Shown piece by piece: positions 3,765 through 60,898 of a stretch of 64,000 nucleotides of DNA. Location: IMG/VR virus record IMGVR_UViG_3300045988_137643, positions 1 to 64,000 of that record. One strand, written 5' to 3'. This stretch comes from a virus (Duplodnaviria > Heunggongvirae > Uroviricota > Caudoviricetes). The notes beneath the pieces were generated by a model. It was given only the letters and a program-made list of their open reading frames with translations, did not search any database and was not told the origin of the DNA. How positions within the stretch are numbered: the stretch's first letter is position 1; every line of letters starts with the position of its first letter. Made by a program: the position numbers and the translations under genes.

Positions 3765-3780
3765 GTAAGTACATACTTAC
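3765..3780. promoter_or_regulatory. family B palindrome GTAAGTA-CA-TACTTAC
   Basis: 7-bp arms; immediately after terminator, upstream of 3824..4219. Confidence 0.55.
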
Positions 3781-3823
3781 GGTTATAAAATAGAAAAATA
3801 ACCAAGACACTACGGAGAGTGAA

Positions 3824-4219
3824 ATGACCGTTAAACGCGAAAAACTGACAGTTGATGTTTACTATGCCTCTGAAACTGCCGAAGGTAAGAATGTGGCAAA
3901 AATCACCGTTGTTACGTACAACACCGAAACTGGTGCCGAAGTACAGGCCAGTACGATCGTGCGTAAAGGTGATGCCTCCGGCGGCGAGTACGCGACTCAA
4001 TACCAGTCCATTCTCGATGCAACTGACCCGCTGCTGCTGAAAATCGAGAACTACTTCCGCCAGGTTGATGAAGAGGTGTTTGAAACCATGATGAGTATGG
4101 TTAATTCCGTATTCACCTCCAGCCTGAACACCAGCACCACCTGGATTGGCCAGTACGGTCTGCGTATTACCTCCGGCATTCCTGCTGACACCTTAATCCC
4201 TGAAAGCGTATTCGCTTAA
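3824..4219 (+). CDS. hypothetical protein
   Basis: ORF track; GGAGAG RBS; followed by terminator 4230-4256. Confidence 0.55.
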   Translation: MTVKREKLTVDVYYASETAEGKNVAKITVVTYNTETGAEVQASTIVRKGDASGGEYATQYQSILDATDPLLLKIENYFRQVDEEVFETMMSMVNSVFTSSLNTSTTWIGQYGLRITSGIPADTLIPESVFA

Positions 4220-4229
4220 TCCTCTTTAA

Positions 4230-4256
4230 ATGGCGCGTAAACCGCGCCATTTTCTT
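4230..4256 (+). terminator. rho-independent-type terminator
   Basis: TGGCGCG-TAAAC-CGCGCCA followed by TTTTCTT. Confidence 0.7.
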
Positions 4257-4263
4257 ATGCCCG

Positions 4264-4278
4264 ATAACAATTTGTTTT
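4264..4278. promoter_or_regulatory. family A palindrome (ATAACAA-T-TTGTTTT)
   Basis: one mismatch to consensus; same cassette context as 84-98 and 954-968. Confidence 0.55.
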
Positions 4279-4346
4279 CTGCCTTTATCTTACTGCGATA
4301 ATTACAACAACAAGAAAACAACGTGTTTATTAGGTGGTGAAATAAT

Positions 4347-4499
4347 ATGGAATACATTGTTACTGTCGCTTCGTCAGATCGGGAGTCGTTACTTGAGGCT
4401 ATCAGAAGCATGGAAAACATCATCATGTCAGAGCAGGAGCTTAATGGTTATCTTGAGATGGATGATTTTTCTATCAAAATGGAGGTGAAGAATGACTGA
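4347..4499 (+). CDS. small hypothetical protein (50 aa)
   Basis: ATG 4347 after AGGTGGTG RBS; not in ORF track (below size cut-off); 3' end overlaps the next start. Confidence 0.35.
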   Translation: MEYIVTVASSDRESLLEAIRSMENIIMSEQELNGYLEMDDFSIKMEVKND

Positions 4500-57813: not shown

Positions 57814-58194
57814 AGACTTTATGGCCTCAACAACCTTTTGTGATGCGCCTTTCTCTTTACCGAATCGCTCGTTATATGCAGCAAGAACCTGTTTTTCGTC
57901 CTCGTTAAGAGGAGCGGTGCCTTCTTTGTATAAAAATGCTGCGAGTTCAGGTTGGCGTTCTTCCAGCACCATCATCATAAGACGACTTGGCTCAATACCC
58001 AGCGCCAGCGCCAGCGGACGAACCTTATCGATAGGCAAAGGAATTTTGCCACTTTTAATTAAAGAAAGGTTGTTGGCATTTTTATAACCAATAAGTCTGG
58101 CTATTTGGGCCTGACTCATAGGTGAGGATTCAATCAGCCCTGCGATAAAAGCAGCATAGCGACTTTCTATAAATTCAATCTTGTTGTCAGACAT
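57808..58194 (-). CDS. XRE-family HTH transcriptional repressor (candidate immunity repressor)
   Basis: HTH segment MSQAQIARLIGYKNANNLSLIKSG; divergent from 58446..58658; GGTAAG-TG-CTTACC palindrome in its upstream region. Confidence 0.7.
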   Translation of the reverse strand: MSDNKIEFIESRYAAFIAGLIESSPMSQAQIARLIGYKNANNLSLIKSGKIPLPIDKVRPLALALGIEPSRLMMMVLEERQPELAAFLYKEGTAPLNEDEKQVLAAYNERFGKEKGASQKVVEAIKSL

Positions 58195-58225
58195 TGTTAC
58201 AACCTTTGCGCGTTTAATTCTCTCT

Positions 58226-58239
58226 GGTAAGTGCTTACC
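58226..58239. promoter_or_regulatory. family B-related palindrome GGTAAG-TG-CTTACC in repressor upstream region
   Basis: 6-bp arms about 35 bp upstream of repressor start; further GGTAAG/CTTACC half-sites in 58270-58430. Confidence 0.55.
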
Positions 58240-58445
58240 GATATTACATCAAAGGTTAGGGTTGTAAAGCTATTATCATTTTTTTCGGCAGGCACTTGTA
58301 AGACCAAGCAAAGGTCCATGCATGGAGAAAAACTAGCCCAAAATAGGTAAGAAAATTAACTTGCATCTGATATAGATGTATTCAGTATTGATACAAATTT
58401 TAGTAGTATTCCTTACCATAGTATAAGTTAGAATGGATTGATTGA

Positions 58446-58658
58446 ATGAAAACCACTATTTCCAGCCTAATCGCTCTTGAGATCGGACACGTACAGAAAT
58501 TAGCTGATGAGTGTGTAGCTGACATCCTCACCGATCTACCGAATGAGCAGATTCAGGTTGGTGTGAATGACACAACTGGCTTTATATTCGAACTTAACAA
58601 CAAACGCTTCACGCTTCTCAATACCGGCTCCGGGTCTTTAGCCGTCAGAATCTGTTAA
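58446..58658 (+). CDS. hypothetical small protein divergent from repressor
   Basis: ORF track, 70 aa. Confidence 0.4.
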   Translation: MKTTISSLIALEIGHVQKLADECVADILTDLPNEQIQVGVNDTTGFIFELNNKRFTLLNTGSGSLAVRIC

Positions 58659-58756
58659 CCCCTCTTCTCCCTGCGCGAATGGCTTAGTTCCCTGTTCGCG
58701 CAGTGCTACATTAAACACACTAGTAAATAATTTGTTTTCATAACAAAGGATTAGCC

Positions 58757-60865
58757 ATGTCTAAAAAACGTTCCATCAAAGAGGTTCAGGACTTCCGTGA
58801 CAGTGTAAAACGAGTAGTCGCTCTCCTTTCAGGTAAAAACATCCCTGTTGCAGAACGAGGGGACGACGCTTATGTACGCTATAACGATGATGGAGAGCCA
58901 ATTCTCGTAAACATCCCATCAATCCCGGATAACGCAACACCGGCATTGATGAATGCTGTGCGCGGATTTCTCGATCATGAGGTTGCTCACATTTTGTTTA
59001 CCGATATTCGTGTGTCCAACAAAATGAGAGAAAAAGGACGCGTTCCTTCCTGGTCGCTATGGAATGCCTTAGAAGACGTGTTCATCGAGCGAAAAATGGG
59101 GCAGGTCTTTAACGGAACAAGACGTAATCTGATGGCAACTCAGCGCCTTATAATCGAAAAAGTCTTTAAACCAAAGGCTTCAGAGGCTATTGCTTATTGT
59201 GGCAAAGATCAGCGCGCGCTTTTTCTAAACTTCTTTCTCTGTCCGGTTGTAAGAGCCTGGGATGGCCAAGCACCGTTCGTAGATTTCATGGATGAATATT
59301 GGCCTGTCATTGAGAAACCAATTTCATTATTAAAAGAACATGGTATCGATGTGGCCGTGCGTAACATGTCTTGCACCGAGGATTGTGTAAAGGTGGCTGC
59401 GACCATAGCTAAGCTCCTCAAAGACACTGAAAGTGAAAGCAAAGGTAAGGAGTCAGCTCCGGGAAAAACTTCCGATCCTTCAGACGCTGACCAGACGGAT
59501 GCCTCTGGAGAAAACAATGAAGACAACGAAGATCATGAGACACCCTCAGAGATAGATAATCACAAATCTATCAAATCAGAATCACATAGTAAGCACAAGC
59601 ATGATAATAACGACAGTGATGATTCAGATAATTCTGAATCATCAGAAACAATATTCGATGATACAGAAAATGATAAAGAGGTATCAGATTCTGATGCTTC
59701 TGATAACGCGGCGTCAGAATCATTAACCGCTGACCACGAAAAAAGAAAAACGACAGAAGACGGCTCTTCAGATATTCCAACCCCGTCAAAAATGAGTCTG
59801 GAAGAGGCTTTAGAGGAGCTGGATAGCATAGAAGATGAAGTCGGAGGCATGACAGAAGATGCTCTATCCGAAACGATTAAAAGCGAGTTAACAGAAAGCT
59901 CGAAAAGCGAATACAGGCCATACAATCGCTCATACGACTTCATCGGCTCGATTGATCAGGCAGAAGCCCATATCAAACGGCTTATTAAAACATTCTCCGA
60001 TATTGATTTAGGAGGATATCCAATCAGCCGCTATCGCATCGTTCCTGAAGGCAACCAGCTCTTCGACAAATATATTGAAAAGCATCTTTCGTCAGGTGTT
60101 TCGTCGACGCTGGCAAAAGACCTGGAGCGAGCAATAGCAAGCAGAAACAGAGTTCAGTTTATACCGGGCCAGCGTCGGGGGCGCATTCATGGTTCTAGTA
60201 TCTACAGATTAGCAATGAATGATGATCGCGTGTTTCGTAAAAAAGAAGAATCTAAAGCCGTTAACGCCTGTGTTCAACAAGTGATTGATTTATCAGGTTC
60301 AATGAGTGGCGAAACGATAAAACTAGCTCTTGCAAGTGCATATACCATCGCCGATGCTCTTGATCGAATAAATGTTCCCAACATTATCACCGGCTTCACT
60401 ACATTTGGCAGTCATCTGGCAGCGATAGAACTTAAGGCTGTCAAGTATGAGTTCTCTCGCTTTGAATCTTTAATGCTACCTATCATCAAAAATTGGAATG
60501 AAAAGGTAAATTCTCGCGAAGTTCGCTCACGTATGGGGTGCGTAGGCTACACATTCCCACTTCTTAATAACGTGGATGGTGAAAGCATAGCCAGCCTTGC
60601 ATCGTTATTTTCCGGTCGCATGGAGGACAGGAAGATCATGCTTGTTCTGAGCGATGGCGAGCCGCTGGCTGTTGGGAGAGGTTTTGACGCTCATTTGCGT
60701 TCGGTTGCGAAGCAAATTGAAACGCAGACTGACATTGATTTGATGGCAATTGGCATCATGACTGACGCACCGGAGAGATTTTACGCAAATCATGCCCTGG
60801 TAACGAGCGTTGATAGTCTTGGTTCATCTGTAGTTACTGAACTATCTCGTATCATTTTGAAGTGA
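58757..60865 (+). CDS. vWA-domain protein with acidic central region (CobT-like)
   Basis: MIDAS motif DLSGSMSG in C-terminal domain; long D/E/S-rich central stretch; AAGGA RBS. Confidence 0.7.
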   Translation: MSKKRSIKEVQDFRDSVKRVVALLSGKNIPVAERGDDAYVRYNDDGEPILVNIPSIPDNATPALMNAVRGFLDHEVAHILFTDIRVSNKMREKGRVPSWSLWNALEDVFIERKMGQVFNGTRRNLMATQRLIIEKVFKPKASEAIAYCGKDQRALFLNFFLCPVVRAWDGQAPFVDFMDEYWPVIEKPISLLKEHGIDVAVRNMSCTEDCVKVAATIAKLLKDTESESKGKESAPGKTSDPSDADQTDASGENNEDNEDHETPSEIDNHKSIKSESHSKHKHDNNDSDDSDNSESSETIFDDTENDKEVSDSDASDNAASESLTADHEKRKTTEDGSSDIPTPSKMSLEEALEELDSIEDEVGGMTEDALSETIKSELTESSKSEYRPYNRSYDFIGSIDQAEAHIKRLIKTFSDIDLGGYPISRYRIVPEGNQLFDKYIEKHLSSGVSSTLAKDLERAIASRNRVQFIPGQRRGRIHGSSIYRLAMNDDRVFRKKEESKAVNACVQQVIDLSGSMSGETIKLALASAYTIADALDRINVPNIITGFTTFGSHLAAIELKAVKYEFSRFESLMLPIIKNWNEKVNSREVRSRMGCVGYTFPLLNNVDGESIASLASLFSGRMEDRKIMLVLSDGEPLAVGRGFDAHLRSVAKQIETQTDIDLMAIGIMTDAPERFYANHALVTSVDSLGSSVVTELSRIILK

Positions 60866-60882
60866 TTAAAACAGCCTTAACG

Positions 60883-60898
60883 ATAAGTAACTACTTAT
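60883..60898. promoter_or_regulatory. family B palindrome ATAAGTA-AC-TACTTAT upstream of AAA+ ATPase gene
   Basis: 7-bp arms. Confidence 0.55.

Follow-up and report, generated by a model that had tools for sequence, protein, structure and literature searches.

Known systems of dispersed operators

In the plasmid prophage P1, one immunity repressor, C1, is thought to control many operators over a genome of ~100 kb, one of them at the repressor's own gene. C1 is a 283-aa protein that binds asymmetric 17-bp operators as a monomer, and the late genes of P1 require a separate activator, Lpa. Lambdoid Cro/CI repressors bind palindromic operators of 14-18 bp, including one over the repressor's own promoter, in a divergent gene arrangement with an adjoining integrase; they act through two or three clustered operator regions combined with antitermination cascades. 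In the IncP plasmid RK2, the short palindromic operators of KorB and KorA occur in a dozen or more copies round the plasmid, at variable positions relative to promoters, and many operons are silenced at once. KorB, of the ParB family, has a helix-turn-helix domain and recognises 13-bp palindromes at 12 scattered positions. Finally, a 9-bp inverted repeat, the Lpa site, characterizes the 11 late promoters of P1 (PMC10695390).

The window, a 64,000-nucleotide stretch of DNA, belongs to an SSU5-type (pSLy3 group) E. coli phage-plasmid. In it, ~16 copies of a palindrome front virus-growth genes and cover the start of a putative repressor gene, and these are most likely docking sites for that repressor. 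They are best read as the dispersed operator regulon of an XRE repressor, P1 C1-like in layout and not in family. The original prediction's comparison with P1 holds for the scattered layout and does not extend to the protein family: C1 is unrelated to the candidate here, a Cro/CI-type helix-turn-helix protein of 128 aa, and the operator is a symmetric palindrome of 18 bp. The Cro/CI-type fold, the palindromic operators, the copy over the repressor's own promoter, the divergent genes and the adjoining integrase recall the lambdoid phages, but here there are ~30 dispersed single operators and a candidate repressor devoid of the peptidase domain. The number of copies, their variable position relative to promoters and the proposed joint silencing of many operons resemble KorB/KorA, while the ParB_N proteins encoded here show no helix-turn-helix domain in Pfam and are not the favoured binder. 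As with Lpa, a short inverted repeat precedes many operons, but a fixed and directional relation to a −10 element could not be demonstrated, and one motif fronts structural, lysis and replication genes and covers the repressor gene's predicted transcription start. Control by scattered repressor sites is of a known kind, not yet described for this plasmid family.

An 18-bp palindrome and its sites

The repeat unit is one 18-bp palindrome, TA(A/G)GTAAGT·ACTTAC(C/T)TA, also written TAAGTAAGT.ACTTACTTA, with symmetric A/T-rich flanks. It holds two overlapping 14-mers (spacer 2) at a 4-bp offset, which produces apparent spacers of 2 and 6; the variable spacer described originally is an artefact of this fixed unit. 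The string TAAGTA-N0-12-TACTTA has 8 exact matches in the window against 0.00 expected from 100 dinucleotide shuffles, and 21 matches with one mismatch against 1.1 in Markov simulations. An 18-mer weight matrix (PWM), the source of the site scores in bits, gives 20 window matches against ~1 expected, 16 of them fully intergenic (intergenic share of the window, 8.8%), and 24-28 window positions score at least 9-12 bits against 0.4-1.8 in simulations. We regard ~16 window sites as credible, 15 being intergenic. Salmonella phage SSU5 and a Klebsiella relative carry ~30 sites per genome at orthologous positions; with the window, they hold 83 non-overlapping weight-matrix sites. Across the three genomes, the sites stand as conserved islands within diverged spacers. 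The sites of this family (Family-1) and two weaker relatives are listed below, with no strand assigned.

3762..3779, ATTGTAAGTACATACTTA: 18.7 bits; directly 3' of a terminator hairpin, with ORF 3824..4219 starting 44 bp on; conserved island in SSU5 and Klebsiella, with −10-like TATAAA/TAATAT/TAGTAT 4 bp downstream
11483..11500, TAAGTAAGTAGTTACTTA: 27.6 bits, the strongest site; within the 64-bp divergent region between a helicase gene (9877..11436, −) and the ParB_N operon (11501.., +); orthologues in SSU5 (99799), Klebsiella (39127) and Acinetobacter (60733, TCAG variant)
16774..16791, TAGGTAAGTAATTATCTA: 23.2 bits; conserved in three aligned genomes; overlaps the terminase-large stop codon, portal ORF 16803 starting 11 bp on
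18281..18298, TAAGTCAGTACTTACTTA: 25.3 bits; identical in SSU5 and Klebsiella; inside the portal gene 3' end, filling the spacer of a sigma70-like TTGAAA-N17-TATGAT
20197..20214, TAGATAAGTAGTTATCTA: 21.6 bits; aligned across genomes; flanked by the major capsid gene and a terminator-like hairpin (20219-20245), with ORF 20261 further on
23772..23789, TTGGTAAGTATATACTTA: 21.6 bits; upstream of the major tail gene; core invariant in three genomes, flanks variable; perfect 16-mer GTAAGTATATACTTAC at 23775-23790
30265..30282, TAAGTAAGTACTAATTTA: 25.0 bits; upstream of tail-tip gene 30305, then a hairpin
37177..37194, TAAGTATGTACTTACTTA: 26.8 bits; upstream of tail-fibre gene 37239, then a hairpin
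42060..42077, TAAGTAAGTACACACCTA: 23.4 bits; ahead of the holin/lysis cassette (42129..); conserved island where the rest of the spacer cannot be aligned
46277..46294, TAAGTAAGTAACTACCTA: 22.4 bits; ATG 46308 lies 13 bp on; at ~+9..+26 from a conserved promoter-like footprint TTCCAA-N17-TAT(C/G)AT
49711..49728, TAAGTAGATGATTACTTA: 15.2 bits; ahead of ORF 49771, with conserved extended −10-like TGTAAGAAT 10 bp downstream
50588..50605, TAGGTAAGTACAAGATTA: 15.2 bits; directly before ORF 50609 and the ligase operon; left half good and conserved in three genomes, right half degenerate
53233..53250, TAAGTATTTACTTACTTA: 24.2 bits; heads a non-coding/tRNA region (tRNAs 54000-54246); identical in SSU5; then −10-like TATAAGAT and a 30-bp block of high conservation
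56166..56183, TAGGTGACTACCTACTTA: 15.8 bits; weak candidate of low confidence, upstream of glutaredoxin gene 56253
58224..58241, CTGGTAAGTGCTTACCGA: 13.4 bits (Klebsiella 17.6); immunity-region site, core palindrome 58226-58239
60884..60897, TAAGTAACTACTTA: exact 14-mer upstream of AAA-ATPase (CobS-like) gene 60961; conserved in SSU5 and Klebsiella, with conserved −10-like TATAAGA ~23 bp downstream

All window sites precede + strand genes, and the operons that bear them serve replication, nucleotide metabolism and head, tail and lysis functions and include the tRNA region. Relative to predicted promoters their position varies, with site centres at ~−44 to +20, and at sites 16774 and 20197 no promoter is obviously needed. 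The dispersed family fronting many operons, as first proposed, is supported. Its perfect copies stand as listed (3766-3779, 11483-11500, 23776-23789, 37177-37194, 49711-49728, 53233-53250 and 60884-60897); so do imperfect copies at 16774, 20197, 30265, 42060, 46277 and 50588, which score 15-25 bits and are orthologous in SSU5 and Klebsiella, but not the lone TACTTAT at 56671, which is not significant. Two further 17-bp cores once counted as members, those of the large palindromes at 14737-14753 and 46154-46170, read TAAGT-A-ACTTA with another spacing, score only 15.7 bits and belong to a separate, much longer palindromic element. The site at 18281-18298 is absent from the original list.

The XRE gene and its predicted promoter

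The candidate binder and its predicted promoter are as follows.

57808..58194, − strand: XRE-type helix-turn-helix regulator, 128 aa, candidate binder (phrog_8 transcriptional regulator, E=6.6e-12)
58241..58268, − strand: predicted XRE promoter, −35 TTTACA (58268-58263), 16-bp spacer, −10 TAATAT (58246-58241)

A structure search (Foldseek) matches this protein to Cro/CI-type repressors at weak E-values, and Pfam support for its helix-turn-helix falls below the curated cut-off. It is 98.4% identical to Cyrano CYRAN_45, a 'putative repressor'. The Cyrano orthologue is transcribed in lysogens at 10x above background and has been called the putative master repressor (PMC9928086). The palindrome originally noted near the gene is present: GGTAAGTGCTTACC occupies 58226-58239, 32 bp from the XRE start codon, at ~−5..+9 of the predicted promoter, that is, over the predicted transcription start. 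Together with TTTACA-N16-TAATAT, whose hexamers are invariant, it forms a conserved block adjoining the XRE start in five lineages. The recurrence of the motif in the repressor control region is thus upheld, while the additional half-sites noted between the divergent genes (58346, 58412) lack conservation in other lineages and probably reflect chance. In a third lineage, another Klebsiella plasmid group, two motif-like copies lie 35 and 65 bp upstream of the XRE start. The XRE-proximal copy is among the weakest, and a further conserved block between XRE and the divergent gene could instead be the real XRE operator; the corresponding region in an Acinetobacter relative contains two GTTTATATAAAC palindromes.

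Protein and motif vary in step. XRE proteins are only 57-68% identical, with a conserved helix-turn-helix stretch, GYKNxNxLSLIKxGxIPLP, in which every non-x residue is invariant; the recognition helix is invariant where the motif is the same and different where the motif differs. In a related Acinetobacter phage-plasmid there is no copy of the canonical TAAGTAnnTACTTA. The motif is replaced genome-wide, also beside the XRE gene, by TCAGTCAGTACTGACTGA, with ~30 copies of TCAGTCA(G/C)TACTGACTGA in the same architecture, and the recognition helix carries the changes N39R, A40P and N42V. Upstream of the Acinetobacter XRE gene there are two to three variant copies, of which one spans ~+1..+18 relative to an extended −10. 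A parallel change of this kind would fit just as well with some other phage-encoded factor having diverged at the same time. On balance, the repeats are probably operators read by a phage-encoded dimeric helix-turn-helix protein, most likely XRE acting as a repressor. Of the XRE regulon first suggested, what stands is XRE as the best candidate binder, on the strength of the promoter copy, the recognition helix and the expression of the Cyrano orthologue in lysogens; we infer the binding itself.

Other possible readers of the sites

The sites might instead act in RNA, as hairpins in 5' leaders or intercistronic regions that govern processing or stability or that an RNA-binding repressor recognises, for instance the FljA-like protein (7823..8386, −). 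The window encodes an FljA-family protein (PF03614, E=4e-84), and in Salmonella the fliC mRNA leader is bound by FljA. Sites 16774, 20197, 46277 and 50588 are either 3-20 nt from a ribosome-binding site or in the gap between genes transcribed together. Watson-Crick pairing at mirror positions, however, is no more frequent than expected (421 observed vs 421.5 expected, p=0.54). Deviations are one-sided and would break a stem, and what is conserved is the sequence of both arms, not their pairing, so that the absence of covariation argues for double-stranded DNA read by a dimer. An A/U-rich stem no longer than 7-8 bp would presumably be weak, the Acinetobacter relative keeps the architecture without an FljA homologue, and the XRE-promoter site lies on the opposite strand relative to the XRE gene. 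The hairpin or processing-site alternative, raised with the original prediction, is already largely refuted by the covariation result, and we give it very little weight. Binding by the ParB_N-domain proteins (11501..12199, 12166..12867), as a KorB-like global regulator or in partition or condensation with dispersed parS-like sites, is improbable. Their two genes follow directly on the strongest site, and homologues in SSU5, Klebsiella and Acinetobacter each have a site in the helicase/ParB divergent region. Pfam nevertheless shows the ParB N-terminal domain only, with no helix-turn-helix DNA-binding domain, and PHROG matches include nuclease- and methyltransferase-associated ParB-like families. 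The genes sit in a rightward operon that itself bears a site, this reading leaves the conserved site over the predicted XRE transcription start unexplained, and XRE, but not the ParB_N genes, belongs to the Cyrano set at least 5-fold above background in lysogens (PMC9928086).

Another phage-encoded factor could be a master activator of the lytic operons that sits on the XRE transcription start and shuts XRE off, which we regard as rather unlikely. A dual regulator of this sort, comparable to P1 Lpa or phi29 p4, would use the palindrome in place of a missing −35. Most sites indeed have no recognisable −35, upstream positions being merely A/T-rich, and in 46% of sites a TAnnnT-type −10 starts at the palindrome's last two bases, placing the site centre near −20, which we take to be close to P1 late promoter geometry. 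A site over the XRE start would suit repressor shut-off in lytic growth. But a −10-like hexamer is as common in the left flank when the bottom strand is read (56% vs 46%, Wilcoxon p=0.97), which points to a symmetric flank rather than a directional promoter. The spacing between the sites and the conserved −10-like footprints differs widely, which is unusual for an activator; a single site class fronts replication, structural and lysis genes alike, with no temporal separation; and domain and PHROG searches found no candidate activator. SSU5, from which the XRE-integrase module is absent, still holds the full set of well-conserved sites, as expected of another reader, but this retention carries little weight because the loss is recent: the module sits at that locus in plasmids that match SSU5 at 99.4% identity up to the junction and no further.

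Proposed regulation by XRE

As a repressor, XRE would occupy ~30 sites per genome in the plasmid-prophage state, ~16 of them in the window. These would overlap or abut promoters, themselves predicted, of the rightward (lytic) operons, where bound XRE would block RNA polymerase; we infer repression, not activation, as its effect. The weaker copy over XRE's own transcription start would limit XRE synthesis. If the repressor were lost or inactivated, all site-bearing operons would be released together, a picture that SSU5's recent loss of the XRE-integrase module fits. Domain searches found no peptidase domain for RecA-driven self-cleavage in XRE, so induction would take another route, e.g. an antirepressor. 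A second palindrome family, AAACAAnTTGTTT, covers other operons, and XRE is therefore not the sole regulator; in principle, XRE could own this second family instead.

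An 18-bp palindrome in SSU5-type phage-plasmids

An 18-bp palindrome (the 18-mer) with the consensus TA(A/G)GTAAGTACTTAC(C/T)TA, on which an iterated weight matrix converges, is a real, strongly non-random and conserved element that functions at the level of DNA. The original prediction described it as TAAGTA inverted repeats with a variable spacer, and every perfect copy it listed was found in its place. The excess over a shuffled background is also borne out: TAAGTA-N0-12-TACTTA occurs 8 times exactly against 0.00 expected, and 21 times in the window against 1.1 when one mismatch is allowed. 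The variable spacer does not survive, as a spacing of 2 bp fits every copy. The full unit, TAAGTAAGT.ACTTACTTA, holds two overlapping 14-mers offset by 4 bases, which accounts for the apparent 6-bp spacers.

At a threshold of at least 11 bits, the weight matrix identifies 83 non-overlapping sites: 20 in the window, where about 1 is expected by chance, 30 in Salmonella phage SSU5 and 33 in a Klebsiella relative. Intergenic sequence makes up just 8.8% of the window, yet 16 of its 20 matches are wholly intergenic, and all lie upstream of + strand genes. About 16 are taken as credible sites, spread over 57 kb of the window, and relatives carry about 30 per genome. The matches at 52849 and 59553 are probably chance, and those at 14733 and 46150 are parts of a separate long palindrome outside the 18-mer family. 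Site 18281-18298 is an additional member, absent from the original list, while the half-sites proposed at 56671, 58346 and 58412 carry no weight, the latter two not being conserved in a five-lineage alignment. A scan of genome contigs with TAAGTAAGTACTTAC was uninformative, the matches listed being isolated singles in unrelated genomes.

By Megablast the window belongs to the SSU5 supergroup of phage-plasmids, with 97% identity to Escherichia phages CMS-2020a and Cyrano (pLF82) and plasmid pSLy3, and 81% to SSU5. Pfeifer et al. unite pSLy3, SSU5_pHCM2, pKpn and pMT1 in one supergroup and set the Acinetobacter 'AB' group beside it as a related outgroup (PMC7969092). Clinical Enterobacteriaceae commonly carry such elements: a 20-kb segment of the window has matches in 1,372 plasmid records (Escherichia, Klebsiella, Salmonella, Enterobacter and Yersinia), and the supergroup takes in S. 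Typhi pHCM2, Y. pestis pMT1 and resistance-gene carriers among E. coli and Klebsiella phage-plasmids. SSU5 from position 1 onward corresponds to the window from 14755 onward, and window 1-14.7 kb to the end of the SSU5 map. From 14755 the gene order is terminase, head, tail, lysis, parA, replication genes, tRNAs, integrase/XRE and CobT/CobS-like genes, nearly all window genes lying on the + strand. A literature search found no specific account of an SSU5 or pHCM2 operator, promoter or repressor, nor one of plasmid-state silencing or the switch to virus production in SSU5-type phage-plasmids, and the 18-mer set appears to be undescribed.

Conservation as DNA sequence

The 14-mer occurs 20 times in the first 100 kb of SSU5 with at most one mismatch (0.07 expected) and 30 times in Klebsiella phage pJN2-26 (0.03 expected). 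In 14 orthologous spacers of the window, SSU5 and Klebsiella, the sites stand as conserved islands amid diverged or unalignable sequence, most clearly upstream of the holin gene, ORF 49771, ORF 50609, the tRNA region and the CobS-like gene.

An RNA hairpin or processing site, which the original prediction had also entertained, is contradicted by the pattern of substitution. When each position of the 63 sites scoring at least 16 bits is set against its mirror, 421 Watson-Crick pairs are observed where column compositions predict 421.5, so that mirror pairing shows no excess over column shuffles (permutation p=0.54). Deviations from consensus are one-sided in 147 cases and both-sided in 17, and only 3 of these 17 restore pairing; the A/G at position 3 and the C/T at position 16 vary independently of each other. 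The series at 20197 (G-C, G-T, A-T) had seemed compensatory for an RNA or single-stranded DNA hairpin, a reading given up once the family-wide test returned no covariation. An Rfam search of the whole window matches only tRNAs. The arms are therefore conserved as sequence and not as a stem. The flanks extend the two-fold symmetry, with a-w-r-A before the 18-mer and T-y-w-t after it, and the whole is read as sequence rather than structure. Such a pattern is characteristic of a symmetric protein dimer reading duplex DNA, and the 18-mer is very probably a protein-binding DNA site.

A candidate repressor and its predicted promoter

The following features bear on which protein binds the 18-mer:

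57808..58194, minus strand: gene for the 128-aa helix-turn-helix regulator (XRE)
58226-58239: palindrome at the predicted XRE promoter
58388-58397: near-palindrome in a second, more distal conserved block
11501..12199 and 12166..12867: two ParB_N proteins, next to site 11483-11500

The XRE protein is 98.4% identical to Cyrano CYRAN_45, annotated as a 'putative repressor', whose transcription in LF82 lysogens is 10-fold over the prophage background (PMC9928086). It matches phrog_8, 'transcriptional regulator', a large phage regulator family (E=6.6e-12), and Pfam HTH_19 below the curated cut-off (E=1.5e-3). An AF2 single-sequence model is all-helical with moderate confidence (pLDDT 73), and its top Foldseek PDB matches are all Cro/CI-XRE repressors, namely Stl, Salmonella phage repressor 5d4z, C.AhdI and lambda cI, with probabilities of 0.9-0.99 and weak E-values of 0.16-1. 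A profile search of PDB sequences gave one weak match (E=0.12). As modelled, the protein has a Cro/CI-type helix-turn-helix fold.

An alignment of the intergenic region next to XRE, covering five lineages (E. coli, Enterobacter, Y. pestis pMT1, Cronobacter and Klebsiella), reveals a conserved block, TCTCTGGTAAGTGCTTACCGATATTACAGCAAAGGTTAGGGTTGTAAAG, adjoining the gene. On the XRE strand it reads TTTACA-N16-TAATAT followed by the palindrome GGTAAGCACTTACC, which equals positions 3-16 of the 18-mer and sits at about -5..+9 of the predicted promoter; the block is kept in all five lineages. Over the predicted XRE transcription start, the palindrome is placed as is classic for autoregulation. Identity among the five XRE proteins is only 57-68%, yet all non-x residues of their GYKNxNxLSLIKxGxIPLP helix-turn-helix are invariant, in parallel with the unchanged 18-mer. 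The second block (window GATATAGATGTATTCAGTATTGATACAAATTTTAGTAGTATT, with the near-palindrome GTATTGATAC) is conserved in 4/5 aligned lineages and may be another operator or a rightward early promoter.

Motif and XRE in other lineages

The A. baumannii phage-plasmid NZ_CP140436.1 shares the local order of integrase, XRE on the opposite strand, small gene, CobT-like gene, AAA ATPase and DnaE. The canonical TAAGTAnnTACTTA has no copy there. In its place, TCAGTCA(G/C)TACTGACTGA is present in about 30 copies (38 raw matches against 3-4 in simulations), with TCAGTCAGTACTGACTGA as the corresponding 18-mer. These sites are intergenic with an A-rich 5' flank, an architecture identical to that of the window, and they precede portal, capsid, tail, holin and replication genes and occur in the helicase/ParB divergent region. 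The XRE intergenic region contains 2-3 copies, one at about +1..+18 of an extended -10 (TGcTGTAAT) directed toward XRE. The same region, at 4254-4293, holds two copies of a 12-bp palindrome, GTTTATATAAAC, 28 bp apart between XRE and the divergent small gene; they are possibly additional operators.

The Acinetobacter XRE is 48% identical and has the recognition helix GFKRPNVLSMIKSGE in place of GYKNANNLSLIKSGK, the differences being N39R, A40P and N42V. K. pneumoniae NZ_CP055187.1, whose XRE is 47% identical, retains the TAAGTA-type family (13 copies against 0.89 expected), with two copies 35 and 65 bp upstream of the XRE start. The genome-wide palindrome is thus found at the XRE promoter in every lineage examined, and the single examined lineage with a different motif, Acinetobacter, has changed both motif and recognition helix. 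The TAAG-to-TCAG switch with its three recognition-helix changes offers a compact test of joint specificity change in a helix-turn-helix protein and its operator set.

Relation to promoters

The 18-mer does not behave as a fixed promoter element. A -10 hexamer (TAtcAT; TATCAT, TATGAT, TACTAT) starting in the final TA of the palindrome had suggested one, an idea dropped because the mirror-image hexamer is just as frequent: 46% of sites have it on the right flank against 56% on the left-flank bottom strand (Wilcoxon p=0.97). Such a hexamer would have centred the 18-mer near -20, as in P1 late promoters. The P1 Lpa late promoters carry an inverted repeat upstream of the -10 hexamer at a fixed distance and in one orientation, a relation that the 18-mer lacks. 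Predicted promoters instead place it variably, within roughly -45..+25, which argues for repressor operators rather than an activator site.

Promoter-like elements at individual 18-mer sites (site; element; basis)
3762; -10-like box, 4 bp downstream; phylogenetic footprint
49711 and 53233; -10-like boxes TGTAAGAAT and TATAAGAT, 10-11 bp downstream; phylogenetic footprint
60884; -10-like box, about 23 bp downstream; phylogenetic footprint
46277; TTCCAA-N17-TAT(C/G)AT upstream, site at about +9..+26; phylogenetic footprint
18281; TTGAAA-N17-TATGAT, spacer filled by the 18-mer; predicted promoter

A second palindrome family

A second dispersed palindrome, AAACAAnTTGTTT, has 14 matches in the window with at most one mismatch, against 0.52 expected, and exact copies in SSU5 (11) and Klebsiella (10). 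It precedes operons without the 18-mer, namely the left-arm small genes, terS, parA, the DnaB-like helicase gene and the CobT-like gene. Because it covers operons that the 18-mer does not, at least two regulons are indicated, and the family looks like a second, complementary one.

Window positions of AAACAAnTTGTTT matches
85, 955, 1006, 1684, 2878, 3362, 4265, 4316, 4945, 14810, 14835, 45030, 47060, 58725

Candidate binders and known systems

The 18-mer set would constitute the dispersed operators of the XRE-type repressor of SSU5-type phage-plasmids, a reading that we hold to be slightly better than an even bet. XRE would bind the dispersed 18-mers and repress transcription. The original prediction compared this layout to the P1-type repressor system, and the likeness holds for the many operators dispersed over a plasmid prophage; repressor family and operator symmetry differ. 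P1 C1 recognizes asymmetric 17-bp operators, in contrast to the symmetric palindrome here. By its family assignment the 128-aa protein is of the XRE type and probably no homologue of C1, and a scan of 33 window ORFs turned up no C1-like protein. The regulon would work much like those of P1 C1 and the RK2 Kor proteins, but XRE belongs to neither protein family. An operator consensus with a named candidate repressor yields about 30 predicted control points, a map that could guide induction or curing strategies and promoter annotation in the SSU5-type family.

Several other owners of the 18-mer come into question. Binding by the ParB_N proteins, after the model of KorB, is a weaker alternative: the two proteins are conserved in all lineages and lie downstream of the strongest site, but only their N-terminal domain is detectable and their genes do not figure among those listed as expressed in Cyrano lysogens (PMC9928086). 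The FljA-like protein is set aside as a binder, as the Acinetobacter relative of the same architecture has no homologue. The scan of 33 window ORFs turned up no other regulator. That some further factor owns the 18-mer, possibly an activator that also shuts off XRE, with the XRE operator elsewhere, is rather unlikely; the second conserved block or the Acinetobacter GTTTATATAAAC palindromes could then be the primary XRE operator. A bolder and similarly improbable version has a bifunctional switch protein, distinct from the repressor, that would bind the 18-mer, license the lytic operons and shut off XRE at its transcription start, giving two complementary genome-wide regulons across the SSU5 supergroup, with TAAG->TCAG recoded wholesale in the Acinetobacter branch. 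If true, the 18-mer would cover replication, structural and lysis operons, and AAACAAnTTGTTT the left-arm genes, terS, parA, dnaB and cobT.

The integrase-XRE module is absent from SSU5, which retains its sites. In Enterobacter plasmids the module is present at that locus; they match SSU5 with 99.4% identity as far as the junction and no further, so the loss is recent and the retained sites are uninformative. The XRE-less SSU5 was accordingly dropped as an argument separating the motif from XRE. The loss is in line with the handling of SSU5 as a lytic phage in phage cocktails.

Other elements of the window

The minus strand at 7823-8386 encodes a full-length homologue of FljA (PF03614, E=4e-84), conserved in SSU5 and Klebsiella relatives and absent from the Acinetobacter relative. 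FljA is an mRNA-binding protein, the Salmonella repressor of phase-1 flagellin, and the homologue might serve the phage-plasmid in altering host flagellin expression.

A long imperfect palindrome, GACCTGCTTCTGTATATATAAATAATAAGTAACTTATTAAATATATACGGAAGCAGGC, with outer arms GGTCTGG/CCAGACC, is found at about 14695-14790, between the ParB_N operon and terS, and at 46120-46205, right after the parA operon. Further copies lie at 33.5 and 78.3 kb in SSU5 and at 17.3 and 42.6 kb in Klebsiella, and the SSU5 and Cyrano GenBank records start just beyond the centre of the first copy. A long-inverted-repeat scan missed both window copies, their arms being imperfect, and found no Acinetobacter counterpart. 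The copies may represent origins of replication, sites of packaging or partition, or break points of assembly.

Downstream of site 53233, in a 770-bp ORF-free stretch leading to the tRNA cluster, a block at 53270-53300 (TTGTTTTCGTTGAGACGCGACTGTTTGAAC) differs hardly at all between E. coli, SSU5 and Klebsiella. It has no Rfam match and may be a small RNA or leader. The four tRNA genes are Asn-GTT, Tyr-GTA, Thr-TGT and Ser-TGA, at 54000-54246 and 54915-55001; the SSU5 annotation at the same locus holds tRNA-Asn only.

Finally, GC-rich hairpins directly follow some 18-mer sites (20219-20245, 30292-30316 and 37197-37217), in the order site, hairpin, ribosome-binding site. The hairpin after the capsid gene is terminator-like, with GGGTGGGC..GCCCACCC and a T-run, and that at 37197 differs in stem sequence between the window and SSU5 with pairing maintained.
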